Source: Rhizaria sp. SCN 62-66 (lineage: Eukaryota). From it: a DNA stretch of 20,000 nucleotides. The stretch spans positions 45,152-65,151 of the forward strand of contig MEDY01000212.1 in NCBI GenBank assembly GCA_001724265.1. Reading direction: 5' to 3'. Of this stretch, positions 124-20,000 are shown piece by piece; position 1 is the stretch's first letter, and the number at the start of each line of letters is the position of its first letter. Both the position numbers and the translations under genes were made by a program. The notes beneath the pieces were generated by a model. The model made no database searches. It was not told the DNA's origin and was given only the letters and a program-made list of their open reading frames with translations.

Positions 124-2026
124 ATGTCTCAAGAGTCTGCTCCAGCAGCAGCAGCAGCAGCAGCAGCTGATTCGAGCGTCCCCAGTCCGTGCAAGCACGA
201 CGAAGCTCGGGACGACGCCAACAAGCAGCTGGCCGTGTGCCCCATTCTGCGCATACCGCGCTTCGACGACTGGCACCTGCACCTGCGCGACGGCGCCGCG
301 CTACCCGAGTACGTCTGGGCGTCTGCGCAGCGGTGCCGGCGAGCGCTGGTAATGCCAAACCTGGCGCCCCCCGTCACCACCACTGCGGCCGCGCTGGCCT
401 ACCGCGCGCGCATCCTCGCCGCGCTCGCCGCCGCCGCCGCGCGCCGCGGGCTGGCCGCTCCGCCGCCCTTCACGCCGCTGATGACGCTCTACTTGACGGA
501 GGCCACGACGGCGGAGGAGATCGCGCTCGCGGCCCGCTCGGGTGCGGTCGTGGCCGCGAAGCTCTACCCCGCCGGCGCCACCACCAACGCGGCCCAGGGA
601 GTGCGGGATATAGCCCGGCTGGACCCCGTGCTGCGCGCAATGGCCCGCGCAGGACTCGTGCTGTGCGTGCACGGTGAAACGACGGACCCGGCCACGGACG
701 TGTTCGATCGGGAGGCGCAGTTCATCGCCACTGTGCTCGTGCCGCTGCTGGCCCGGCACCCGCGGCTGCACGTGGTCATGGAACACGTGACCTCCGCCGC
801 CGCGGTCGCGCTCGTCGACGCTGACACAGTCCCGGCAAACACGCAGACACCAACGCAAACGCATGCAGCGGGCGCTTCAAGTGCCGGCGCAAACGCTGCT
901 TCAAGTTGTTCAAGTGTGCCTATCGCGGGGCGCGTTGCCGCGACGATCACCCCGCAACACATGCTGTTCTCGCGCAACGCGCTGTTCCTGGGCGGCAAGC
1001 TGCGTCCGCACGCCTACTGCCTACCCGTGTACAAGACGGAGCGCGACCGCTGGGCGGTGGCGGGCGCGGCCGCGGGTACCGGGGTCAGGCACCCAGAGCG
1101 GTTCTTCGCCGGGACCGACTCCGCGCCGCACGCAATAGACGCAAAATGTAAGAAAAAGCATACGACTAGCAGTTTTAAGTTGTTATATAGTCAATATCCT
1201 TGTTATATCCCTCAAAAAAATGGTTTCGCCTATCTTTAACCACCCCTCACTTCCCTCACTTGTGCCGCTTGTCTGTCCTCACTCGCGCCCGTAACCAGAG
1301 TGCTCCGCCTGCTGCGCGGGCTGCTATACGGCGCCGGATGCCGCCGCGCTGTACGCGGAGGCCTTTCTGCGCCACGCCGAGGCGCTGCTGCTGGCCGGCG
1401 ACCTCACCGCGGCAGCCACGGTGACCGTGGGCCGGTTGCGCGCCTTCCTGGCGCGGGACGGTGCCGCGTTCTACGCCCGTGCTGCCCGCGCGGCCAGAGC
1501 GGCCGCGGAGGGGACGGCAACGGAGGGCAACCCTGCTGGCGATGACAACCGCTCCAGCAGTGGCAGTGGCAGTGCGGGGGGCGCGGACCCCGCGCTGTTG
1601 GCCGCACTCGACTTGCCGCAGCACAGCACCGCGACGGCGACTGAGAACAATGACAGCAGAGACAGCAACGACGACAGCAGCGACGGGCTGGTGTTGCTGC
1701 ACTGCCGCTGCGACTGCTGCTGCTGCGGCAACGGCGGCGGAGGCGGCGGCGGCGGCCCGCGCGGGTGCCCCGCAGGCGCCCCGGGCTGCTGTCTCACGCG
1801 GGCCAACAACGAGCAGGCGCAGGCTCTACAACTGCAACAGCAGCAGCAAAGTGACTACAACGACGATGCGGCGGCGGTGACAGTGCGGATGGCGGCGGCA
1901 ATGGCGGTGCGCCTGCGGTGGACACACGCCGCACACGTCACAGAGTGCGCAGAAGGCAGAAAGGTCTCCGAGTGCACAGAAGTAACTCTCGGGAGCAGCG
2001 GCGTTAGCAGCGTTGGTAAGCAGTGA
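124..2026 (+). CDS. URA4: Class II (E. coli PyrC / fungal URA4 / plant-type) dihydroorotase. Exons 124-1147 and 1299-2026; ~583 aa if the TAG at the splice junction (codon 342) is read as sense; ends TGA
   Basis: Exon 1 has DWHLHLRDG, VMPNL, AKLYPAGATTN (carbamylated Lys), VHGE, MEHVT, ATITPQH, YCLPVYK and GTDSAPH. After the intron the frame starting at 1301 gives CSACCAGCYTAPDAAALYAEAF...LRAFLARDGAAFY, matching E. coli [22 protein letters not shown]...FEAFCSVNGPQFY, and joins ORF 1421..2026. Confidence 0.93.
1148..1298 (+). other. Spliceosomal intron (151 nt, phase 1) in dihydroorotase
   Basis: Donor GTAAGA at 1148, an abrupt AT-rich interior, a pyrimidine tract at ~1230-1290 and acceptor CAG at 1296-1298. 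An in-frame TAA at 1292 excludes upstream acceptors; using AG 1299-1300 would shift the frame. Confidence 0.85.
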
Positions 2027-2376: not shown

Positions 2377-2901
2377 TCAGAACGCCTTCTTGCGCGACTG
2401 CTCCTCCGACCGCGCCTGCGCATACTGCGTCTGCGCAGACTGGGTCGGCGACTGCGCAGGTGACTGCGGCGGCGAGGAGGGCACGTAAACGTCGCGGGCG
2501 GGCATTGGGGCCGCCCCATGCGGCCTCGCACGCACCGCGTCCTCGATCTGCCCCGCGCGCTGCCGCACCGCGCCCGCCGCCGCCTGTGGGGACTTGCTAC
2601 CGCCGCTGCCGCTGCTGCCACCGCTGCCGCTGCTGCCGCTGGAGAGGCCAACGACGTGGAGGATGAAGAGGACGGTGCGGCCAAGGTAGCCGAAGAACTC
2701 GACGCGGAACCGCTCACTGTTGACGGGAAGTGCAGAAAAAAGCGTGATAAACGATGTCGTGATGAGAGTGTCGTTCGCTATATGTGTCAGAGACGTCGAT
2801 AAGAAGCGTGAAGTAAGAGTTGGGAGCATGATTGAGATGAGAGGGACGTACGAAAGGACGATGGCGGCGACAAGCGCCACGATAAAGAGCAGCACAAACA
2901 T
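2377..2901 (-). CDS. Small hypothetical protein (~129 aa) with an N-terminal signal peptide or TM segment, a second hydrophobic stretch and a Ser/Gly/Pro/Gln-rich tail. Exons 2901-2852 and 2716-2377; ends TGA
   Basis: MFVLLFIVALVAAIVLS|ERFRVEFFGYLGRTVLFILHVVGL... Exon 2 is GC-rich with coding-like codon use. Donor GTACGT at 2851 and pyrimidine tract plus CAG at 2719-2717 preserve the frame. No family recognised. Confidence 0.6.
   Translation of the reverse strand: MFVLLFIVALVAAIVLSYVPLISIMLPTLTSRFLSTSLTHIANDTLITTSFITLFSALPVNSERFRVEFFGYLGRTVLFILHVVGLSSGSSGSGGSSGSGGSKSPQAAAGAVRQRAGQIEDAVRARPHGAAPMPARDVYVPSSPPQSPAQSPTQSAQTQYAQARSEEQSRKKAF
2717..2851 (-). other. Putative spliceosomal intron (135 nt, 3n, stop-free in frame)
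   Basis: GTACGT donor (the same hexamer as the 17119 intron) and TTTTTTCTGCACTTCCCGTCAACAG acceptor. Because it is 3n and stop-free, the ORF track reads through it. Confidence 0.6.
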
Positions 2902-3748
2902 GGGCCAGTGCAACTCAAGCAATGCTAACTTCAACGAGTCTGTTGCTGCTAAACAGCAAGCAAATGAGAGGTGGAGTGAGAACAAGGACGAGATTGCAAG
3001 AGAATATTAGCACGCAGAAAAACGGGGTGAAACTTCGGCGGGAATTTTACAGGGTTACCGGACACTGCAGAAGATATAAAATCATGAACAAAATGGTGCG
3101 ATCGTAAATCGTATGGGAGTTTCCAAATCACGACTATTTAATGTCCAAACAGGCGAGAAATCTCAGCACTAATCCCCCTTTTTTAGCGGACTGGGGTTGC
3201 TCCGAAGAGGAATTGCGTGCAGTGTGCGATTGTATGCAGCAAATCGGTCGTCAAAGAGTCTGAAACTCATTTCGTTATTATTGAACGTACCTTCTCTGTA
3301 TTATATTTTTGAGAATGTTTCTCAATTTCTTGGCTGCATGCACTCTCGCCCCTAGCTCGACTGCGCTTCGAAGCGCTTAAAACAAAGGGTCATATCCCGC
3401 TCTCTACCAACATTGCCAAGTATTTGTTGTCCACCGCGCAGTTTTAGTATTTTTTATTTTCACCTGTTTCCTACTGCGAGTTTGTTTCACGCTGAACTCA
3501 CACCGCGACGACATATTACTGCGTTCGTCGCGCCGACAACGCAATCCTGTTCAGCAATGTCACGCACGCATAACTCAACAGACTTTGCAGCAGCCTAAAC
3601 AAATCATCATCGTATAGCTTCAACTACTGCTGTTGATGCTGTCGTTCCGAATGTACCGCGTGCCAAGTAGTTTCGGCCCCTCTCCAACAACAGCTTTACT
3701 AGTTTCATCGGCGACAACATGTGACAACGACGACAGTGACAGACAGCA

Positions 3749-4095
3749 ATGACGGCTCTCACGACGGAAGCGACAAGTGTATGTATGCCTTGGGGTCTCA
3801 AGTTAGCACTAGTAACAAACAGCCTCACTCCGCACATGCGCACGCACACGGGCGAGAAGCCCTATTTGTGCTCTTATGAAGGTTGTGGTAGTAGGTTCAC
3901 TATGAAGGGCTACCTTTACGTACACACCCGCACGCTCACGGACGAGAAGCTTTATCAGTGCGAGCGATGCCAGTTGTGATTTGGCCTGTTAGAGTTGGCC
4001 AACATCAGCACCTTAAGCGCCACATGATGCGGATTCACAAACTCGCCAGTAGCGCTGCCGCTGGCGCTGACTCTGACTCTTGTGAGCTCTTGTGA
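3749..4095 (+). pseudogene. Decayed C2H2 (Kruppel-type) zinc-finger gene remnant with about three fingers
   Basis: [50 protein letters not shown], then QHQHLKRHMMRIH in another frame. Lesions: the last His of finger 2 is Leu, the linker is TDEKLY, there is a TGA at 3977-3979, a 14-nt frameshifting insertion at 3986-3999, and several stops upstream in frame. Confidence 0.8.
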
Positions 4096-5115: not shown

Positions 5116-8100
5116 ATGAGCCGCCCCGCGTCCGCGTCGTCCGCTGCGGCCGACGCCCGCGACCGCGTACGCTCGCTCATGGTCGCCGACGACCTGCCCG
5201 CCTACCACCTCTCCATCGCCTCCATCGAGCTGGGACTGGGCGTCTCCGTCAAGCGCGGTCTCAGCGCCGAGCAGGTCGCCACGAACCGGCTCAAGTACGG
5301 CTCCAACCGTCTGCGCGAGCCCAAACAGCTTCACCCGGTGCTCATGTTCCTCAAGCACATGGTCAACCCGATCACCTTCATCCTCTACTGCGTCTTCATC
5401 ATCCAGGTACGAGTCCACCAATGTTGTTGCCTATAATATATGTTCATTATATTTATATGTATTTTTGCTATCTTACTATATCATCACGCTTTTATTTTAA
5501 ATAGCCCTCTCTCCTCATGATCTCCCCGCAATATATCCTCTTGTGCTGCTCCTCACTACCAGGCCGTGTCCAACGAATGGATCGACGCAGGCGTGGTGAT
5601 GTTCCTCATCGTCGCCAACGCGATCCTGGGCTTTGTCCAGGAGCTTAAGTCGGTGATGTCGCTCGCGGCGCTGCAGTCGATGTCGTCGCCCGTGGCCACA
5701 GTAATGCGCGACGGCGCGTCGATGGCCGTGGACATCAACGACATCGTCGTCGGCGACGTCGTGCTGCTCAAGCAGGGCGACCAGGTCCCCGCCGACCTCC
5801 GCGTCGCGCAGGCGCTCAACCTCGAGGTCGACGAAGCGCTGCTGACGGGCGAGTCGGTGCCGATCTTCAAGCACACGGACCCACTGCCGCTGCCCAAGCA
5901 GGAGCGCGCCGACCTCATCGTCTCGGTCGCGCTCGGCGACCGTAGCAACATGGCCTTCCGGCAGACCACGGTCGTGGCCGGCACGGGTGTGGGCGTCGTC
6001 GTCGCGGTCGGCGAGGCCACCAAGGTGGGCCAGCTCTCGGAGCGGCTCCTCAGCGCGGGCAACCCCAAGACGCCGCTGGAGCGCAAGATGGCCATCTTCA
6101 TGTACTCGGTCTTCGGCATGGCCATCATCCTCGCCATCATCATCTTCGGCGTCACCGGCTTCACCTTCGAGCACGACACGATCGTCTACGCCTCGGCCAC
6201 CGGCATCGCGATCCTGCCCGAAAGTCTCATCGCCGTCGTCACCGTCACGCTCTCGCTGGCGACGTCGCGCATGGCGGCCCGCAAGGCCATCGTGCGCAAG
6301 ATGGGCGCCGTCGAGATCCTCGGCAACGTCACCAACATCTGCTCCGACAAGACCGGCACGCTCACGGAGGGCAAGATGGTCGTCAAGCGCTTCTGGCCCG
6401 TCGGCTCCAAGTACATCTACCACGTCACGGGTGGCACCATGGACGCCACCGGCGGCTTCGGCCTCGAGCACGACCCCACGGACCCAGACGCGCCGCCCGT
6501 CGAGCCGGGCCGCCGCTCCTCGCGCGCCGCCTCCCGGGCCTCGCGCGCGGGCACACGCGCCTCGCGCGCCGCCTCGGGCACCGGCGCCGCCTCTGTCGGC
6601 TCTATTGGTGGGACTGTCTCCGGCCGCCCCAGCACGGCCACGGGCGAGTCGCGGCGCTTCCGCGCGCCGTCGTACGCGCACACGGTGGCCAAGGTCTCGC
6701 AGGGGCTGCCCGAGTCTGACTTCTCGGCGGTGCAGAAGGCGGCCGAGGAGCTAGCGCTGGTCTGCGCGATGTGCAACAACACGCAGCTGCAGCACGACGA
6801 GGAGGAGGACAAGCTCATCGGCACCGGCAACCCCACGGAGCTGGCGCTGCAGGTGCTCGCGTACAAGCTGCAGAGGTCCCCTTACTACTTCGAGGAGGAC
6901 GAGGGCTGGCTAAAGTGCGGCCAGTGGGCCTTCGACTCGGGCGTCAAGTGCATGTCGGTCGGCCTCGTGCGCGACGCCGAGCTCAAGGAGGAGGACGAGG
7001 CCTCGGGCCGTGAGGACGGCGACAACTCGCTCGAGTGCAAGGTGCTGCTCAAGGGCGCGCCCGAGGCCGTGCTGCCCAAGTGCCCAGGCGCCAACGTCGA
7101 CGAAGTCATGGCCAAGGTCGCTCACCTTGCCGGCCAGGGCTACCGCGTGCTGGCCTGCGCCGCGCGCGACGACCTCAGGCTGGCCGACCGCGACGGCGCG
7201 CGTCTGCATGACATCGACCGGCACCTGGCCGAGTCCAACATGCGCTTCGTGGGGCTTGTCGTGGTGTACGACCCGCCGCGCGAGGAGTCGTACGTGGCCG
7301 TGCGCAAGTGCAAGGAGGCGGGCGTGACGTTCCACATGGTGACGGGCGACCACCACGGCACGGCCGAGGCGATCGCGCGCAAGCTGGGCATCCTGGAGGA
7401 CCACCAGGGCCGCGACCGCGTCACCACGGGGCCAGTGTTCGATGCCATGACGGAGGAGATGATCGACCTGATGGAGGAGCTGCCGCTGGTTATCGCACGC
7501 TGCTCGCCCGAGAGCAAGGTCAAGATGGTCGAGGCGCTGCACAGGCGCCGCCGCATCGTGGCCATGACCGGCGACGGCATCAATGACGCGCCCGCGATCA
7601 AGATCGCCGACGTGGGCGCTTGCATGGGCATCGCGGGCACGGACGTCACCAAGGGCGCCGCCGACATCGTGCTGGCCGACGACAATATCGCGACGCTGGT
7701 CAACGCCGTCGAAGAGGGCCGCCACGTCGCCGCCTCGATCCGCAAGTTCATCGTGCACCTGCTTACGTCCAACATCGCCGAAGTGATCGTGCTCATGATC
7801 GGGCTCGCGCTGCGCGACGACAACAACGAGGTCGTTTTCCCGCTCTCCCCGCTGCAGATCCTCTGGGTCAACATGTTCACGTCGACACCCCCCGCCATCG
7901 GTCTGTCGCTGGACGAGAAGAACCCTGCGCTGATGCAGCAGCCGCCGGACCACCGGCCTCTCTTTTCGCTCGAGGTCATGACGGACCAGTTCATCTACGG
8001 CATCATTCTCGGCGGCCTCACCTTCGGCGGCTACCTCGTCGTTATCTTCGGCTTCGGCGATGGCGAGCTGGGCACCCACTGCAACAAGACCTCCGGCGAG

Positions 8101-8535
8101 CACACGTGCCACCTGGTGTGGACGGCGCGCACGACGGCCTTCGCGACGCTCAACACGCTACTGCTCTTCCACGGCTACGTGTGCCGCGATCCGCGGCAGA
8201 GCGTGTTCGCGCGCTCCTGGCTCAGCAACAAGGTGCTCCTGTGGTCTCTCATCGTGGGCTTCGCGCTGCTCATGCCCGTCATCTACATCCCGGGCGTCGC
8301 GCGCACGCTCTTCCGCCACGCCTACATCTCCTGGGAGTGGGTCATCGTGCTCGTCTGCATCGTCCTGCACCTGCTGCTCACCGATCTGTACAAGTTCGTC
8401 AAGCGCCAGCTCTACGGCGAGAACCACTGGGAGGCCGACGGCGGCCGCGCCAGCGCCGGCATCAAGGGCGGCAGCCGCGGCGCGCGCACCGTCATCACCG
8501 AGGACGGCGGCCGCATCGAAATGATTCCCGTCTAA
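5116..8535 (+). CDS. ENA1: P-type ATPase, type IID (ENA, Na+/K+ efflux). Exons 5116-5406 and 5563-8535; ~1087 aa; ends TAA
   Basis: GLSAEQV...YGSNRL, LEVDEALLTGES, LPESL, ICSDKTGTLTEGKM (phospho-Asp; ENA-type GKM), GNPTE, FDSGVKCMS, KGAPE, MVTGDH, LPLVIARCSPESKVKMVEALHRR, AMTGDGINDAP, FPLSPLQILWVNMFTSTPPAIGLSLD. The LPLVIARCSP...ALHRR segment is characteristic of yeast ENA1 and relatives. The start could alternatively be ATG 5179. Confidence 0.92.
5407..5562 (+). other. Spliceosomal intron (156 nt, phase 0) in the ENA ATPase
   Basis: CAG|GTACGA donor, AT-rich interior, pyrimidine tract and CAG|GCC acceptor. Splicing joins ...YCVFIIQ to AVSNEWIDAGVV..., the expected TM1-TM2 region. Confidence 0.92.
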
Positions 8536-10048: not shown

Positions 10049-12295
10049 TCACTGCATGAGGAAGGCGACGATGCCGGTATCGAAGCCGCAGCCGCCACAG
10101 CCGGCCCGCAGCCCCGCCTCGGCCGCCGGGCGCCCCCAGGGGCCCGCAGCAGAAGGAGCATTGGTACTCGCACCAGCACTAGCATTTGCACTCGAGTAGA
10201 CTGCGGCCACGGCGGGGGCCTGGGCGAACACAGGGGCCAACGCACAGCACCCTTTGTTGCTCTGAGGCAACTGCGACTGCGACTGGGCGTGCGCGTTGTG
10301 CGCTGCGTAGACGGCCCCCAGCAGAGCCCGCGTCCGCGCCGCCGCCGCGGCCACGGCCGGACACGAGCACAGCAGAGCCAACGCAGCGACACCCACCGCA
10401 CCAGGCCCAGACGCAGACGCAGAGTCTGTCGGCAGCCAGAGGGGCGACTGGGGGCCGGCCTTGGCGGCGGCCGCGGCGGCTGCGGCGACGGAGACGGCGT
10501 CAGGCACCTCCGCGATGTGCGCCCCCGCCTCGCAGCCGCAAGCCATGCTGCGACTGCCAGCGCTGGCTTCAGCGGTGTTGTTTGCGATGTGAGTATTACT
10601 CGCGAGTGCGAGTGCTAGGGAGCAGTGGCAGGAGCAGCAGCCGAGCCAGAGCAGAGGCACCGCGCCGTCCGAAGTTAGGCCGCCGCCACCCCGTGTCGCG
10701 GAAGTTAGGCCGCGCGGTTCGAGCACGCCCGTCGGGCACAGCGGGCACTGCGACAGCGCGGCGGCCACGGCGGCGGCGGCGGCGGGCGCGGGGCCCGGGG
10801 CAGCGCTCTCGGCCACGGACAGCAGCGCAGCGGCGTCAGCAGCAGCCTCAGCGGCGGCCGCAGCCCCCGCGGCGGCCTCGGCCTCGGCAGCCACCCACCA
10901 ATCGCAGTCGCTGTCGCCGGTCTGCGCATTGGCGTTCGTGTTAGCTGTGCCATTGTAGTACGCAGCGGCAGCCTCCTCGTCGAATGCTTGTTGCTGCTGC
11001 TGTTGTTGCTGTTGTTGGTTATGCAGCCACTGCTGTTGTTGTTGCCGTTGCTGGCTCTAATCTTCGTCCCGACATGCCTGGCCGACGCCGCCATACGCGG
11101 CAGCAGCACCGCCGCGACTGTACCCGTCGCCGTCGCCGTCGATGGCGGCCGCGACGGCCGACTGGACCTCAGCCAGTTCCTCGCGGAGGCTCTCAGCCAG
11201 CAGCGCGTCCTTCATCGCCAGCATGATGTCCACCATGTCCTCGCTCGTCAGCACGCTGCCAGTGCTGTCAGGGGCGGCGGCGGCGGCGGCGGCGAGACCT
11301 GTGAGGATCAGAGACGAGCCGTCGTCGCACATGCTCCCAGTGTTGTGACCAGACTGCGCCTGCGCCTGTGTCTGTCGGTCCGGCGACGCTCGGGCTGAGG
11401 CCTGCGCCGAGGCAGTGCGGGAGATGGCGGCGACGGCGTTGCGGCGGTACCACTGGAGGAACCACTCCTTGCTGTTGCCGCCGGAGCTGCTGCGCGTCAC
11501 CGCGGCGTTGTGGCGGCTGCTGTCGTCGTCGTCGCCCATCGCGGGGCTGCACGTAGTACCGCCGAGGCTGGTGACGGCGGCGGTGGGGACGCGTGACAGC
11601 ACCGCCGGCAGTCCGAAGCCGGGAAACGACGACGAGGATGAGGACGAGAGCGACGAGGAGGATGAGGGCGTTGTTGTGATGGGAGACGAGCCAGAGCTGG
11701 AGCCGGCGCTGGCACTGGGGCCGAAAATGGAGCCGAAGCTAGCGTTGGTGCTGGCAATAGCCGCAGCGTTGGAGTTAGCGTTGCTGCCGAAAGGGGTCGA
11801 GAAACCTTGCTGTGGAGCTGTACGGGCTGCGTTAGGCGTCATCGGGAACGACGCGATAGTAGCAGCAGCGCCGCTGTTGCTGCTGCTTGTGCTGAGGGCG
11901 GACTGAATGATGCCATGGAAGGCGGAGGCCATGCTGGCAGCGGCGCGACGGGCACTCAAGCGGCCGGCGGGAGCACTGCCACCGCAGCTGCCGGCGTGAA
12001 CGTCGGCGGTGTTGCCGTTCCCGGTGAGCCCCAGACCAAGGCCGAGCACGAGGGCGTTCTCGTTGAAGCAGCTGTCGTCGTCGTCGTCGTCGTCGTTGCC
12101 GTCCTGGCCGTCGCCGTTGCTGGCGTTCGAGCCGCACGAGGAGCCGCGGATGCGGGTAAGGATCTCGGAGCGGTTTGCGCGTACGAGGTCGGCACAACGC
12201 GACATCATGCTCGCCTTAATCGACTCGCGCGTGCTCAAACCACGCGCCTTGGCCGCCGCGAGAGACGCGCCGGGAGACGGGCGGGGACGGAACAT
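10049..12295 (-). CDS. RPAIN: RPA-interacting protein (RPAIN/RIP), ~748 aa with long low-complexity insertions. One in-frame TAG at 11059-11057 (codon 413); ends TGA
   Basis: N-terminal RESIKASMMSRCADLVRANRSEILTRIR (RPA_interact_N-like). Middle LTSEDMVDIMLAMKDALLAESLREE. C-terminal Zn finger CPLC...CSC...LLGAVYAAH...GC...PVF...LRAGCGGCGFDTGIV (RPA_interact_C-like). ORFs 11057..12364 and 10049..10894 share a frame and only the TAG separates them. Confidence 0.8.
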
Positions 12296-13538
12296 GAGCT
12301 GGCGGAATCGACACCACGAGAATGGGAAATAGATGCGAAAATAATGAGCCGTACCGCACAACAAATTGTAAACAATAGCAAATAATCACGGAGAATATGG
12401 AAATAACATCGAAAGCGCCGTTTACGGTCGGTTATACGTTGTGACAAGTGCAAACCAGGGTCTCTAAGCCTTATTAAAAGGGCGCCAACTGAACAAACGG
12501 AAACAGCAGAATAAGCCGGAATCGACGGTTTTACAAACTCAATGGCATGAAATCGGTACGAAACGCACATATAAACGCGTATTTGTTGATTTCTAGAAGG
12601 TCTTTAAGTTTTAACACGCGAGAAAAGCATATACCCAAGAAACCTGCAGACTATCTCGACGCGACAAGATATACACAGGTAAAACCAAGCTCATAACAAA
12701 TAAAATACTGTGAAAGATTTTCAATAAATATTATTAAGCCCATGGAATTTTAATATTATTATTATTACTGCTTAGATTAATATATCTAAAAATTGTATCG
12801 TTTTTTACCATTATAAATAATTGAAAACTGTTGAAACATATATCAATAACATTTTAAATTGTTAGTTTCTTTTGATGCTTCTCTGCCAATGACAGTAAAA
12901 AGCTTTTTTTCTTATTGATCTTGGAGCAAACCAAGGTTCTGACTTGCACAAAAATGTTAAAAACTGTTAATATCAAACAAAACGTTTTAATGTATTTTAA
13001 TTCTATTTAAATAAAATTAAACACTATTACAACTTGATAATAAGATAGTCGTATAATTATAAAATTAAAACAGTATATAATATTATTTAATAATTTATGT
13101 TAAATTTCTTAACTGAATATTTGACTCTCACAGTCAAATCAAAGAGTGTAGCTCTTTAATCAAGAGGTTCGCTTGACGCATGATTAAATATGATGGATAG
13201 CAAGGAGCAGTTACCAATGGTCATAATCACAATGATAGATTTGATTGGGAAATTTTGTATTACAGTGTACGTATATGATAAGTTTGTAACAGGTTAGTTT
13301 TTTGATTCTGGGCTCATCACCACAGAAAGACAACATTCGGCAAGTCCGAAGCAACGCAAATCCGACATTATTAAAATCTCCTAAGACGTTGCCCACGACA
13401 CATATTTAGCTTCATAAAAACTAAAACTCGAATTTAATTTTAACAAATTTTGTTCGTATCTCGTATATTTTTATGAGATGACCTTACTCACTCCGCAGTG
13501 GTGTAAGAGTACTTGTTATCGCTAGAGGGCTGATTTGC

Positions 13539-16500
13539 CTAATCGGACTCAGACTTCTTGTTGGAGTCATCGTCATCATCCTTGGCAGCGGCAGCCTCCT
13601 CCTCAGCCTTCTTGGCAGCGGCAGCCTCCTCCTCAGCCTGCTTCGCAGCAGCAGCCTCCTCCTCAGCCTTCTTGGCAGCGGCAGCCTCCTCCTCAGCCTG
13701 CTTCGCAGCAGCAGCCTCCTCCTCAGCCTTCTTGGCGGCAGCGGCAGCAGCGGCAGCCGGCAGCAGCGGCAGCTTCCTCCTCGGCCTTCTTGGCGGCGGC
13801 GGCCTCAGCAGCGGCCTTGGCCTCAGCCTTAGCCTTAGCGGCGGCAGCCTCCTCCTCAGCCTTGATGCGAGCAGCCTCAGCCTCCGCAGCAGCCTTAGCC
13901 TCAGCAGCAGCCTTAGCCTTAGCCTCGGCCTCAGCCTTGGCCTTGGCGGCGGCAGCCTCCTCCTCAGCAGCGGCCTCGGCAGCCGCCTTGGCCTCGGCCT
14001 CGGCCTTGGCCTTGGCGGCCTGCTTGCGCTTCTGGCTGTTGCCGGCCTGGCCCGCCTCGGGGAACTCGTCCGCGTCCACCTTGACGTTGGCCACTCTCTC
14101 GTCAGCGCTAGCGCCAGCAGGAGCCTTGGGGTGGGCGTGAGCGTTAGAGTGCGCCGCGGGGGCGGCAGCGGCGAGGCCGTGGGCCTGGCGCATGATGCCG
14201 GCCCAGCCGCCGGGGGCCGCCGCGGCCTTGGTGGCGGGAACCACAGGCGCAGCAGCAGCAGCAGCAGCGGCGGCGGCCTTCTTGCCCTTGGGCTGCTGCT
14301 GCTGCTGCTGCTTAGGCTCAGCGGCAGAGGCAGCAGCGGCAGCGGGAGCAGCCGCCTCGGCGGCCGCCTTCTGGTTCTTCTTGTTGTTGCCATGAGTGTT
14401 CTCCTTCTTCTCAGTCGTCGTCGTCGTGGCAGCAGCAGAAGCAGCCTTGGCCTCAGCGGCGGCGGCAGCGGCGGCCTTCTTGTCGGCCGCAGCGGCGGCA
14501 GCGGCCTTCTTGTCGGCGTCAGCGGCCTTCTTGTCGGCGTCAGCGGCGGCGGCCTTGGAGGCCATCTCGTGCTGCCGGCGCTCGCGCTCCTTGTCGGCGG
14601 CGGCGGCGCGGTCCGCGGCGGCCTTGTTGGCGGCGGCCTGCGCGTCCGCGAGCGCCTTCTGCTCCGCGGCCGCGGCCTCGCGCGTGCTCTTGGCGGCGAG
14701 CGCCTGCTGGCGCTGCACAGCTGTCGCGGCGAGTCGGCGCACGACGGCCACGTCGATGGGGAAGGCCTTGGCGTCGAGGTCGGCCAGCAGCGCCGTGAAG
14801 GCCGCGAGCGACAGCGCGTCGGGGTCGCAGCGCCGCAGCACGCGCTCCAGGTATTGGCCCACCTGCGTGGCCAGCACGTGCAGCTCCTTGGCGTCGGCCG
14901 CGGCCTGCTCAGCCATCTGAGTCTCGAGCGCCAGGTGCTGCGACACGACCGAGGCCGGCAGTGACAGCGCGCGCGCGCGGGCCTGCTCCTGGCGCGCCTG
15001 CAGCGCCGCCGCGCGGCAGCCCGCGACGCGCTCGGCGAGGAACTCGTGCAGCCGCTGCGCCGACGCCAGGTGCGCGCGCAGGGCCGGGAAGAAGCCCGCG
15101 CGCTCGGCGGCGGCGGCGGTGGCGGCCTTGGCGCCCAGCTCCTGCAGGCGCAGCGCGAGCCGCTGGTAGAGAGCGATCGTGAGCCCGTGGAGCGCGTCGC
15201 CGGTCGCCTTGTCGGCGGCCAGCGCGGCGGCCGCGGCCGAGGTGTCGGCCTGGCGCGCGGAGACGTCGCCGCGCAGCGCCGCGTAGCGCGTGCGCACGGC
15301 CTCGGCGCGCGCCGCGGCCTCGCCGAGCTGGGCCTCGGCCGTGGCCAGCTCGACCTCGGCGCGCTTGAGCTGCGCCTCGAGCAGGCGCTTGCGCTCGCGC
15401 GCGTCGTCGCGCTTGGCCGTCAGCTCGGCCACGCGCGCGGCGTGCGGCGCCAGGTCGCGCTGCTGCAGCGCCTCCAGCTCGGCCGCCTTGGTCGAGGAGC
15501 CAGAGGCGAGCGCGGCGGCGCGGTCCAGCTTGGCCTGCGCCTGCGCCAGCTCGCGGCACACGCCCGTCTCGAGCAGGTGGAACGCCAGCTGCACGTCGTG
15601 CTCGTGCTTCGGCCGCTCCTGCAGCGCAGACAGCAGCGGCGCTAGCGCTGAGCTGGCCCTGGTCAGCGCCGCCGCAGAGGCCTTGTTGGCGTCCTGCAGC
15701 ACGCGAAGCGGGTCGCTGCCCGCGGTGGCGGTCGCAGCGCCCGCGGGGCCGGCGCTGGCGGCGATGTTCTGGGAGCCCCAGGGGCCCTGCGGCGCGAGGG
15801 GGGCCGCGGCGGCCGCGGCGGCGGCGGACGCGGCGGGCACGGCCTGCTTGGCGGCGAGCGCGCTGCCCAGCCCGGCGACGTGGACCGACGCCTCGCGCTG
15901 CGCGGCGAGCAGCTTGCGCACGAGCGCGGCGTAGCCCGCGGCGGCGGGCGCGGCGGCCAGCGGCTTGCCCAGCAGCACGAGCTGATCCAGCAGCCACGTC
16001 GCCTGCGCCAGCTCGCTGCCGAGCACGTTGGCGATGAGGCGCGCGAGGTTGGCCTTGGCGGTCAGGACGACGCCTGCGTGGCCGGGTGCGGCGCGCGCGG
16101 CGGGGTCAGCGCAGAGGCGGGTGAGGAAGGCCAGCGCGAGGTCGTCGAGCGCGGGCGACGACGCCAGCGCGGTCGCGATCGGCGTCGGCGCGCCCGCGGC
16201 TGCTGCGGCGGCCTGTTGGAGCTTGAGCGTCCACGTGCGGGGCAGTTCCGGGTCCGCGCGGGGGTCCCAGGCCTTAGCCGCGGCCTCCAGGGAGAAAATG
16301 TCGCTGAAGTCGGCGGGCGCGGCCACCGCAGGCAGAACGACAGCAGCAGCGGGCTTGGGGGCAGCAGCAGCGGCGGGGGCGGGGGCGGCAGCGGGCTTGG
16401 CAGCAGCGGGGGCGGCGGGGGTCTCGTCGTCGGGGATGCCGCGGATGCCGTTGTCGATAATGCGGGGGCCGTTGTTGTTGTTCTCGCCGTCCTTCTTGCC

Positions 16501-17178: not shown

Positions 17179-17844
17179 CTTCCCTCTGTGGGGCAACACA
17201 AAGCAAGAGAAAAGCGAACGAATGATGAGCACACGGTGCGGAACAACGGCAAAGAGAGAGGCACCGCAGTGGGGGAACGCGTCCAAGGCAACGAAAGTGC
17301 TGACACGGCAATTTTGAGCTGTGCGGGACACCAAGAGCAACGCACACGCGCGTGTAAACAAAATAAATACACACCCAGGCCATGCAACAGCGCTATCCAG
17401 ATATAAATATCACCCGCAGTGTCATGTTTCACGCCGCAATGGCTTCTGCCAATGGTCCTCGTTGTGGGCTCAAATCTGTCGCCTCAGTAGGCCAGACCTG
17501 CTAGAGCCAAGCAGAGACGGCTAACTTTCCATCGGCCAGGAGCCCACAGTCTCACCAGTCTGAGTCCAACGGGTCGCTAGCTCGTCCGACGAGAGAAGAA
17601 GAAGAAGCTTGTTGTTCTCGGTGAAGGCTACGCACAAGGGGTTCGAGTGGGTATATAGACGCCGTCAAATGTTATTGTAACGACATAACCGAGTTGTTTT
17701 GTACTTTCTATTATATTTTCTCTTTTGTTTTCTCTCCACGTGACTTCCCTGCCCCATTCTATTCCCGATTCTCACCCCGTCTCGCTTCCCCTCTCTTCGC
17801 CCTCCGCGTGGTGTCCCCTTTTTGTCTTGCAGCCTCGAGCACTG
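17179..17844. promoter_or_regulatory. Short divergent intergenic region between the coiled-coil gene and RRP15 (probable bidirectional promoter plus 5' leaders)
   Basis: Head-to-head start codons ~670 bp apart, with an acceptor-like pyrimidine tract facing outward on each strand. No specific promoter motif proven. Confidence 0.4.
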
Positions 17845-18978
17845 ATGAACAAGCGCAAGGGCGACCATAGCAAGTCCTCCGGCGGCGTCGTCTCGTTCGC
17901 CGACGACGCCGCGGACCCGTCCCCCTCGGCCGACTCCTACGGCGGCGCCTCCAAGGGCTCGGCCGGCACAGGCACCAAGAAGTCCCGCCCCGCCGCCGAC
18001 CCCGCTAAGGGCTTCGGCGCCGCGCTCGCCGCCATGATCAGCATCCCCACGCCCGCGCCCGCCGCTACCGCTGCCGCTGCCGCTGCTGCTGCTACCGCTA
18101 AGCCCGTTGCTGCTACCAAGCCCGCTGCTGCGCCGCAGTCTGCCGCGCGCGCCGCCTTCGCTGCCGACAAGCACATCAAGCACGCCGAGCGCCTCTCCAA
18201 GAAGGAGGCCGCTGCTGCCAGCGCCGACGCTAACGCTGACGACGCCGCTGCACCCGCGAGCATCGCCTCTGCTGCTGCGGCCGCTGCGATGGACGCGAAG
18301 CTGAGCTCGAAGCTGCAGCGGCGGCTGGCGCGCTCGGGCGTCGCGCTGCCGGGCGCGGCGGTGCCCGCAGCCGTGATCGCGCGCGCCGAGGCCGAGGCCG
18401 CCAAGGCGCTGGCCGAGGCGCAGGCGCGCGTGCGCGAGCGGCAGCGCCGCCGCCAGCGCCGCCTGCTGCTGAGCAAGGACCACATGACCGCTGACTTCAC
18501 GGACCTAGAGCGGCGGCTGCTGCGGGTGGCAACCAAGGGCGTGGTGACGCTCTTCAACGTGGTCGCGCAGCAGCAGAAGGATCTCAGCTCGCTCGAGGCC
18601 GCGGGCTCGGGCACGGCTGAGGGCATCAAAGATAAAGCGACGAAGCACCTCTCGCAGGACGGGTTCGTTGACCTGCTCAAGAAGCAGTCCGCCGCCGCCG
18701 CCGCCACCGCCGCGGCCGCCGCGGCCGCCGCCAAGAAGAAGAAGTCCACGTCCAACGGCAGCGACGACGACGACGACAGCGACAAGAGTGGCAGCGGTGA
18801 CGACGATGATGACGACGATAAGAAGGCCAAGGCCAAGAAGGGCGACGTGTCCGCGAGCAGCAAGGCAGCCGCGGCGGGGCTAAAGTGGAAGGCGCTGGAC
18901 GAAGGGTACCTCCTGGGCAAGAACAAGATGAAGGACTGGGAGGCCACCGACTCGTCCGAGGACGAGGGCTCCGACTGA
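17845..18978 (+). CDS. RRP15: Ribosomal RNA-processing protein 15 (60S biogenesis), ~377 aa; ends TGA
   Basis: Rrp15 signature ERRLLRVATKGVVTLFNVVAQQQK, then LSQDGFVDLLKK and the C-terminal WKALDEGYLLGKNKMKDWE acidic tail. The first ATG after the pyrimidine tract and CAG (17830-17832) is 17845; an upstream coding exon is not excluded. Confidence 0.92.
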   Translation: MNKRKGDHSKSSGGVVSFADDAADPSPSADSYGGASKGSAGTGTKKSRPAADPAKGFGAALAAMISIPTPAPAATAAAAAAAATAKPVAATKPAAAPQSAARAAFAADKHIKHAERLSKKEAAAASADANADDAAAPASIASAAAAAAMDAKLSSKLQRRLARSGVALPGAAVPAAVIARAEAEAAKALAEAQARVRERQRRRQRRLLLSKDHMTADFTDLERRLLRVATKGVVTLFNVVAQQQKDLSSLEAAGSGTAEGIKDKATKHLSQDGFVDLLKKQSAAAAATAAAAAAAAKKKKSTSNGSDDDDDSDKSGSGDDDDDDDKKAKAKKGDVSASSKAAAAGLKWKALDEGYLLGKNKMKDWEATDSSEDEGSD

Positions 18979-19834: not shown

Positions 19835-20000
19835 TTAATCGAGGGCGACCTTCTTGCCGTTGCCGTTGGCACGGTTCTTGCGGTTGAGGATGGACTGGCG
19901 AGAGCCGTTCATGTAGAGGTCGGTGACGACGACGTTGGAGGTGTGGATGGGGACCTGGACAGAGGTGCCGTTGTTCTTGTCGGTGGTGAGGCCCTCGAGG
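19835..20000 (-). CDS. RPL26: 60S ribosomal protein L26 (uL24), 3' end only; the 5' part lies beyond the window; ends TAA
   Basis: Manual translation from 19999: LEGLTTDKNNGTSVQVPIHTSNVVVTDLYMNGSRQSILNRKNRANGNGKKVALD*, which aligns with eukaryotic L26 [41 protein letters not shown]. Not in the ORF track. Confidence 0.9.
   Translation of the reverse strand, partial: LEGLTTDKNNGTSVQVPIHTSNVVVTDLYMNGSRQSILNRKNRANGNGKKVALD

Follow-up and report, generated by a model that had tools for sequence, protein, structure and literature searches.

Only a handful of lineages are known to have nuclear codes in which UAG alone has turned into a sense codon (PMC5304391, PMC11687900, PMC10553269). In Iotanema spirale, UAG codes for glutamine while UAA and UGA are stops, and 204 in-frame UAG codons are found in 126 genes (PMC5304391). 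The rhizarian exLh reads UAG as leucine and keeps UAA and UGA as stops (PMC5304391), and phyllopharyngean ciliates read it as leucine or glutamine, UAA being the preferred stop (PMC11687900). Glutamate is assigned to UAG in Oligohymenophorea sp. PL0344, in which UAA is lysine (PMC10553269), and to UAR in Blastocrithidia nonstop, in which UGA is tryptophan (PMC12153298). Here we describe a window of 20,000 nucleotides (the whole stretch analyzed, positions 45,152 to 65,151 of contig MEDY01000212.1, deposited as Rhizaria sp. SCN 62-66), where one gene on the minus strand, at 12295-10049, is broken by an in-frame TAG, and a second TAG is predicted at the exon junction of a dihydroorotase gene. 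The explanation that we favor, with a confidence a little short of even, is that this organism uses TAG sparingly as a codon for Glu or Gln and terminates with TAA and TGA.

As in Iotanema, in which UAG alone is sense, lies in frame in conserved genes and has not been seen as a bona fide terminator (PMC5304391), a sense UAG is proposed here; unlike that case, which is built on reads and conserved-site statistics, ours has two sites in about seven genes, comes from sequence only, and points to Glu rather than Gln at its one conserved site. The codes of exLh and the phyllopharyngeans are likewise independent UAG-only reassignments in uncultured protists, recognized from sequence data alone, but they concern other amino acids or lineages, and they were backed by suppressor tRNAs or by a large number of conserved sites (PMC5304391, PMC11687900). 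PL0344 is a precedent for UAG as glutamate apart from UAA, but this ciliate also reassigns UAA (PMC10553269), whereas TAA ends the ATPase and RPL26 genes of our window. In our judgment, the genome sampled by the window is not ciliate-like either, with exons of 65-80% GC, introns of 135-288 nt and several genes on one contig. Blastocrithidia has UAG as glutamate outside the ciliates, but it reassigns all three stops (PMC12153298), and here TGA and TAA clearly terminate. A code with UAG as glutamate and UAA and UGA as stops, in a lineage that does not look like a ciliate, was not found among the codes described in the papers compared here. If TAG is indeed sense, a GC-rich protist of non-ciliate appearance would add an independent origin of UAG-only reassignment; should the codon be glutamate, the code table would be new. 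The low usage of TAG would then show what a reassignment looks like when it is early or little used. Were the TAGs lesions instead, there would be nothing unusual in the finding.

The interrupted gene (split gene from here on) runs on the minus strand from an ATG at 12295 to a TGA at 10049 and is broken solely by the TAG at 11059-11057. It appears as two stop-to-stop open reading frames (ORFs) in the same frame, 11057..12385 (442 aa) and 10049..11056 (335 codons, then TGA). Around the break the minus strand reads ...CGG GAC GAA GAT TAG AGC CAG CAA CGG CAA CAA CAA CAG CAG TGG CTG CAT AAC.... An earlier, sequence-only reading of this DNA had described a single in-frame TAG followed by a frame open for about 335 codons; the minus-strand sequence and the ORF list agree with the letters, peptide and coordinates that it gave, and the frame is open for 335 codons up to the TGA at 10051-10049. 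The N-terminal coding part (11060..12295, 412 codons from the ATG at 12295-12293) is of low complexity and rich in Ala, Ser and Asp. The TAG (11057..11059) is codon 413 and follows Asp-Glu-Asp. Two codons later begins a glutamine tract rich in CAG and CAA (codons 415-436, 10988..11053, with TRF rows at 10988-11017), over which coding score and GC content at third codon positions (GC3) dip; 10 of the gene's 11 CAA codons fall within residues 416-436. The C-terminal coding part (10052..11056, 335 codons in the same frame) contains CxxC motifs at 517-520 and 733-736 and several CxC pairs, and it is closed by the TGA (10049..10051), which lies at the boundary between GC-rich and AT-rich DNA. Read through, the gene yields 748 residues, with position 413 as its sole anomaly. 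The 5' flank of the ATG, at 12300-12560 on the minus strand, is T-rich, and in it AG follows a pyrimidine tract (ttattctgctgtttccgtttgttcag); this flank resembles a splice acceptor and may belong to an intron in the 5' untranslated region or mark a trans-splicing site.

The TAG is one interruption of one coding frame. This follows from the continuity of frame, codon preferences and GC3 across it, from the rarity of such an open frame among shuffled sequences and from the drop in GC at the TGA. On a codon-usage log-odds score, trained on neighboring genes and compared among the three frames in 60-codon windows, the gene's frame is the best of the three on both sides of the TAG in all windows except the one starting at 11155, where frame 1 scores above it; the dip in score extends into the next window, 11065. 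GC by codon position is 0.60/0.64/0.81 in the N half and 0.73/0.64/0.76 in the C half, and the synonymous choices of the C half (GCC>GCG>GCT>GCA; GGC; CTG/CTC; GTG/GTC) are those of the N half and of three reference genes. When the 1005 bases downstream of the TAG were shuffled by mononucleotides, the frame stayed open in 45 of 20,000 cases, and at the TGA the GC content falls from about 0.71 to 0.39. We therefore find it hardly credible that a 412-aa protein truly ends at the TAG, with the next 1 kb being either GC-rich untranslated sequence or another gene. It is true that long open frames arise by chance at 71% GC (other frames there reach 225-253 aa), that gene callers recorded only the 412-aa product, and that both CxxC motifs sit within 9-nt near-repeats. 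However, besides the frame, the codon preferences and the shuffles, GC remains at coding level until the TGA and only then drops, and the TAG is followed by no AT-rich spacer or start context, the first downstream ATG being codon 584.

Independent support for TAG as a sense codon appears to come from the second site. The plus strand at 124-2026 carries a class-II dihydroorotase gene (TIGR00856 pyrC_dimer, E 4.6e-78, profile positions 2-252), with exon 1 at 124..1147, an intron at 1148..1298 (donor GTAAGA at 1148, pyrimidine tract and CAG at 1298) and exon 2 at 1299..2026, ending in TGA. Exon 1 finishes in ...GCA AAA T, its last T being the first base of the junction codon, and exon 2 starts with AG TGC TCC...; canonical splicing joins T(1147) to AG(1299-1300) as TAG, giving ...AAA TAG TGC.... 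Ten donor/acceptor pairs keep the downstream PyrC frame, among which 1148/1298 is the only one to combine a GTAAG-type donor with a polypyrimidine-CAG acceptor. In the TIGR00856 alignment, exon 1 ends at position 252 and the third residue of exon 2 falls at position 256, which leaves the junction codon a single position. In BLASTP alignments with a bacterial PyrC, exon 1 extends to ...DSAPHA, and exon 2, in its genomic frame, aligns from the Glu in K-E-x-x-C-G-C-A-G onward. We assembled a set of 12 bacterial PyrC genes (12 of the 41 genomes searched had one), in which the junction column between Lys and Cys is Glu in 11 and Ala in one, and the preceding Lys is invariant. Against a profile built from those 12, the canonical GT-AG model with X at the TAG aligned without gaps at 331.3 bits, a splice one base to the left (TG...CA, giving GAG) scored 334.0 bits, and four models with other GT or GC donors scored 310.8-320.3 bits. 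The His/Asp motifs that we take to be catalytic are present in the aligned part. An otherwise intact housekeeping gene would thus carry TAG at a position that has to be filled, as a rule by Glu, and conservation would mark this one site, through a predicted splice junction, as a reassigned UAG. The TAG of the split gene falls in a region for which no homologues were found. The dihydroorotase also has lengthy inserts of low complexity and an extended C-terminal tail.

Because of this independent second site, the translation of TAG as an amino acid is now the leading explanation, short of being established. The split gene would then be a single gene whose 748-residue product is largely disordered, with the TAG at codon 413 translated, TAG being a rarely used sense codon here and TAA and TGA terminating; decoding at both sites would presumably involve a release factor that has changed and a tRNA whose anticodon is CUA. 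The amino acid would be Glu or Gln. At codon 413 the two fit equally well, Glu after Asp-Glu-Asp and Gln before the poly-Gln tract, whereas Glu fits the only conserved site; given the 11 of 12 Glu in the dihydroorotase column, we consider Glu at least as likely as Gln. The sequence-only reading had proposed TAG = Gln, and the second TAG strengthens the part of that proposal that makes the codon an amino acid; as for the choice of Gln, Glu is no less likely. In its fullest form, our proposal is of a GC-rich, intron-bearing lineage from wastewater bioreactors in which UAG alone is reassigned, most likely to Glu, and is as rare as in early codon capture; to this we give rather less than even credence.

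Splicing is another way to remove an in-frame stop, and the window offers its own introns for comparison. The ATPase intron (5407-5562, plus strand, 156 nt) is validated by homology: exon 1, which holds Cation_ATPase_N, aligns to residues 52-131 of the relative P0004, and exon 2 aligns from residue 133. Three more introns were inferred, one in the dihydroorotase gene (1148-1298, plus strand, 151 nt, GTAAGA...pyrimidine tract...CAG) and two on the minus strand at 2851-2717 and 17119-16832, both GT-AG with a pyrimidine tract. The four are 135-288 nt long, with GC of 0.36-0.51, pyrimidine of 0.60-0.66 and T of 0.29-0.40, and their donors are GTACG (three) and GTAAG (one). The TAG of the split gene is spanned in phase by 484 GT/GC-AG candidates no longer than 400 nt. 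The GT candidates among the 60 shortest are 30-105 nt long and poor in pyrimidine (0.34-0.43) and T (0.07-0.17); their donors are GTCGGC, GTATGG, GTACAG, GTCGGG and GTCGCG, and none of them resembles the four introns of the window. Since they are so unlike these introns, we agree with the sequence-only reading that no credible intron covers the TAG. That reading had named a 30-nt intron starting at GTCGGC as the nearest; it is a poor candidate, as had been said, but in-phase candidates of 36, 42 and 69 nt had been overlooked and are no better.

What would be needed is unconventional splicing, that is, a short or non-GT-AG intron over 11057-11059 plus a dihydroorotase intron displaced one base to the left (TG...CA), which restores GAG. 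Euglenids have nonconventional introns, and the best named matches of the ATPase include Discoba. An 87-nt in-phase stretch, GTCGGG...AAG, covers the patch rich in A and T at third positions, 11155-10976 is exactly where coding score and GC3 dip, and the dihydroorotase splice shifted by -1 gives Glu and the top profile score. We nevertheless hold it highly improbable, since the one homology-validated and the three inferred introns are all canonical GT-AG with pyrimidine tracts, the borders of the dihydroorotase intron are perfectly canonical, and the 87-nt stretch is A/C-rich (T 0.07), shows no structure pairing its ends and reads as ordinary poly-Gln.

A further possibility is that UAG is a genuine stop and that the split gene alone uses leaky or programmed readthrough, producing forms of 412 and 748 aa. 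Near-cognate decoding of UAG commonly inserts Gln, and the frame downstream is open and codon-biased, as readthrough would have it. However, the 123 nt from the TAG onward contain no notable RNA structure (z -0.27, with 74 of 200 shuffles folding equally well or better), and the context TAG AGC CAG is not known to match readthrough motifs. Nor can readthrough serve a housekeeping enzyme with a TAG in its core, as in the dihydroorotase, and we find this explanation very doubtful.

As regards stop codon usage across the window, TGA ends the dihydroorotase gene, the gene at 2377-3006, the split gene and Rrp15, and TAA ends the ATPase and RPL26 genes. TAG is a certain terminator in none of these six genes, a small sample; a seventh, the repeat gene, ends in TGA or TAG depending on the frame. 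This gene (17178-13723, minus strand), known from its ORF and repeats, codes for an Ala/Glu/Lys repeat protein and has an apparent 1-nt frameshift near 13765 (13723-13806), inside a 30-nt tandem array of 7.6 copies. Its long frame stops at the TGA at 13725-13723, and the KKAEEEAAAA motif continues for about 60 codons in another frame, which ends in a TAG at 13539..13541 on the minus strand. Readthrough of that TAG would add 16 codons up to a TGA and is uninformative; since the first 48 nt after the certain stops have a GC of 0.58-0.69, the GC content after it does not discriminate coding from untranslated sequence. The frameshift is either an assembly fault in the repeat or a real truncation. 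A six-frame scan found no TAA or TGA with coding signal on both sides in the sense frames; such a scan yields antisense false positives and is a weak control. Joining ORFs with TAG, TAA or TGA as sense was swamped by off-frame ORFs in this GC-rich DNA.

If the two TAGs were errors of assembly or consensus in a metagenome contig, the true bases would form sense codons. The contig does come from bioreactor or wastewater metagenomes, the frameshift of the repeat gene is of a kind typical of assembly faults, and the TAG of the split gene adjoins a CAA/CAG repeat. Against this, a 412-aa product (P0002) identical to the N half is recorded from six contigs, as is a second product, of 989 aa, likewise identical to that of the window; since the shorter one ends at the TAG in all six, this TAG is no one-off base error. 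Two substitutions that happen to make stops would also imply many more errors, and the ATPase frame is open for 991 codons and retains intact matches to P-type families. The dihydroorotase site lies outside repeats. Overall, an assembly or consensus error seems improbable. As only the 412-aa half of the split gene is on record, standard gene callers would truncate genes of this host.

Several observations weigh against a sense TAG. There are only two candidate sites, and TAG is far from frequent, with one contiguous and one junction TAG in about 3,886 codons. Scaling on the TTG:CTG ratio, about 9 TAG codons would be expected relative to CAG and about 12 relative to GAG, as compared with the one contiguous TAG observed; none lies in frame in the 1,088-codon ATPase, in Rrp15 or in the roughly 1,035-codon repeat gene, and the alternative frame of the latter ends in TAG. 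In-frame UAG is far commoner in Iotanema (204 in 126 genes, PMC5304391). ARAGORN found no tRNA gene in the 20-kb window. The dihydroorotase TAG depends on a predicted splice junction, and the six contigs with the 412-aa product may not be independent assemblies. The nearest relative locus that could be retrieved, L001 (22 kb, about 50% GC, with an ATPase 56% identical to that of the window), shows no TAG-joined ORFs, and its long ORFs end in TAA in six of seven cases and in TAG in one. Its synteny with the window is limited to the ATPase; the other neighbors differ, and those recognized among the 16 of 36 ORFs put to Pfam were an NSUN5-like methyltransferase, a leucine-rich repeat protein, Hop2 and a 2-oxoacid dehydrogenase E2. 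A tblastn search of L001 with the split-gene protein gave no match (best E 1.9). The window also holds lesions that no code change explains, namely, the frameshift near 13765 and a broken C2H2 zinc-finger gene. Finally, since codons ending in G dominate and changes run from GC to AT, TAG is the likeliest nonsense codon to arise by mutation.

These last points suit a different explanation under the standard code, in which two independent nonsense substitutions occurred, GAG or CAG to TAG in the split gene and, where dihydroorotase exon 1 ends, G to T at its final base. They would be young loss-of-function alleles or belong to one decaying haplotype or duplicate, and the split-gene protein would stop at residue 412. 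Neutral sequence is AT-rich, intergenic GC being 0.30-0.43, in line with the mutation bias just described, TAG is otherwise absent from the 3,886 codons, and the occurrence of the same product on six contigs indicates that the base is real. The other lesions of the window point the same way. The C2H2 gene (about 3740-4095, plus strand; zf-H2C2_2, E 4.2e-08) has a zinc-ligand His replaced by Leu, an in-frame TGA and a change of frame before the His pair of its last finger; with a GC of only 0.43-0.51, it looks like a decaying pseudogene. However, it is the sole clear relic in the window and has lost its GC-richness, whereas both TAG-bearing genes keep a high GC3, which supports TAG as a sense codon, and show no other decay in frame, codon preferences or, in the aligned part of the dihydroorotase, the presumed catalytic motifs. 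For a window of about seven genes, two nonsense lesions would be an implausible load; one of the two would lie in a conserved enzyme that is otherwise intact. We regard the two substitutions as unlikely, but as an explanation to be taken seriously.

The analysis of the TAG is, in its main point, independent of what the split gene encodes. The sequence-only reading had identified the protein as RPAIN, with a whole C-terminal RPAIN zinc finger encoded after the TAG, and had proposed the Pfam RPA_interact_N/M/C domains as a check on the read-through translation. None of this was recovered: hmmscan against Pfam recognized no RPA_interact family in the 748-residue protein or in either half (E<=1), and none in six segments of it (E<=10), where the matches were sub-threshold and of low complexity; no other tool recognized an RPAIN domain, and NCBIfam gave no family for the read-through protein. 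A word-indexed protein search returned, among 8000 scored candidates, solely the window's own 412-aa P0002, which was also the only match of phmmer among 1.84 billion representatives. A search with residues 300-600 among shorter proteins found none. PDB sequences gave nothing beyond poly-Q noise (E 0.37-0.41), the Atlas had no usable match for the C part or the N half, none of the 596 pattern stretches that the read-through protein matched in JGI metagenome contigs was confirmed, and the exact pattern around the TAG occurred in no viral contig. A single-sequence AlphaFold2 model of residues 505-748 reached a mean pLDDT of 40.6, too poor for searching. The features come in an order like that of RPAIN (a basic helix with a single Cys at the N terminus, an acidic helix in the center and, toward the C terminus, CxxC...CxC...His...CxxC), a resemblance and no test. 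The protein differs from RPAIN in being about three times as long as human RPAIN and in being filled with low-complexity inserts. We consider the RPAIN identity roughly as probable as its opposite.

The window is eukaryotic in composition, with exons of 65-80% GC and spacers of 30-43%. It is present in metagenome runs from bioreactors, wastewater and activated sludge; half or more of the sampled words occur in 3 of the 15 runs listed, and a polyA RNA run among the 15 has a share of 0.18. An Rfam scan of the 20 kb found no family. The ATPase (5116-5406 and 5563-8535, plus strand, stop TAA) is an ENA-type (IID) Na/K-efflux P-type ATPase (TIGR01523, 706.7 bits), whose four nearest relatives are 61%, 60%, 56% and 53% identical. 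Its named matches, at 38-45% identity, are from kinetoplastids, Andalucia, Chromera and Mortierellomycetes, and such low identities to named eukaryotes suggest that the host belongs to a poorly sampled lineage. A scan of genome contigs with the relative P0004 returned only bacterial and archaeal P-type ATPases. Among the remaining genes, a small one at 2377-3006 on the minus strand is known from its ORF and has tandem stops, TGA TGA, at 2374-2379. Rrp15 (17689-18978, plus strand, Pfam 1.5e-12) ends in TGA, and the last exon of RPL26 (19835-19999, minus strand, Pfam Ribosomal_L26, E 1.7e-10) ends in TAA and belongs to a gene that extends beyond the window.

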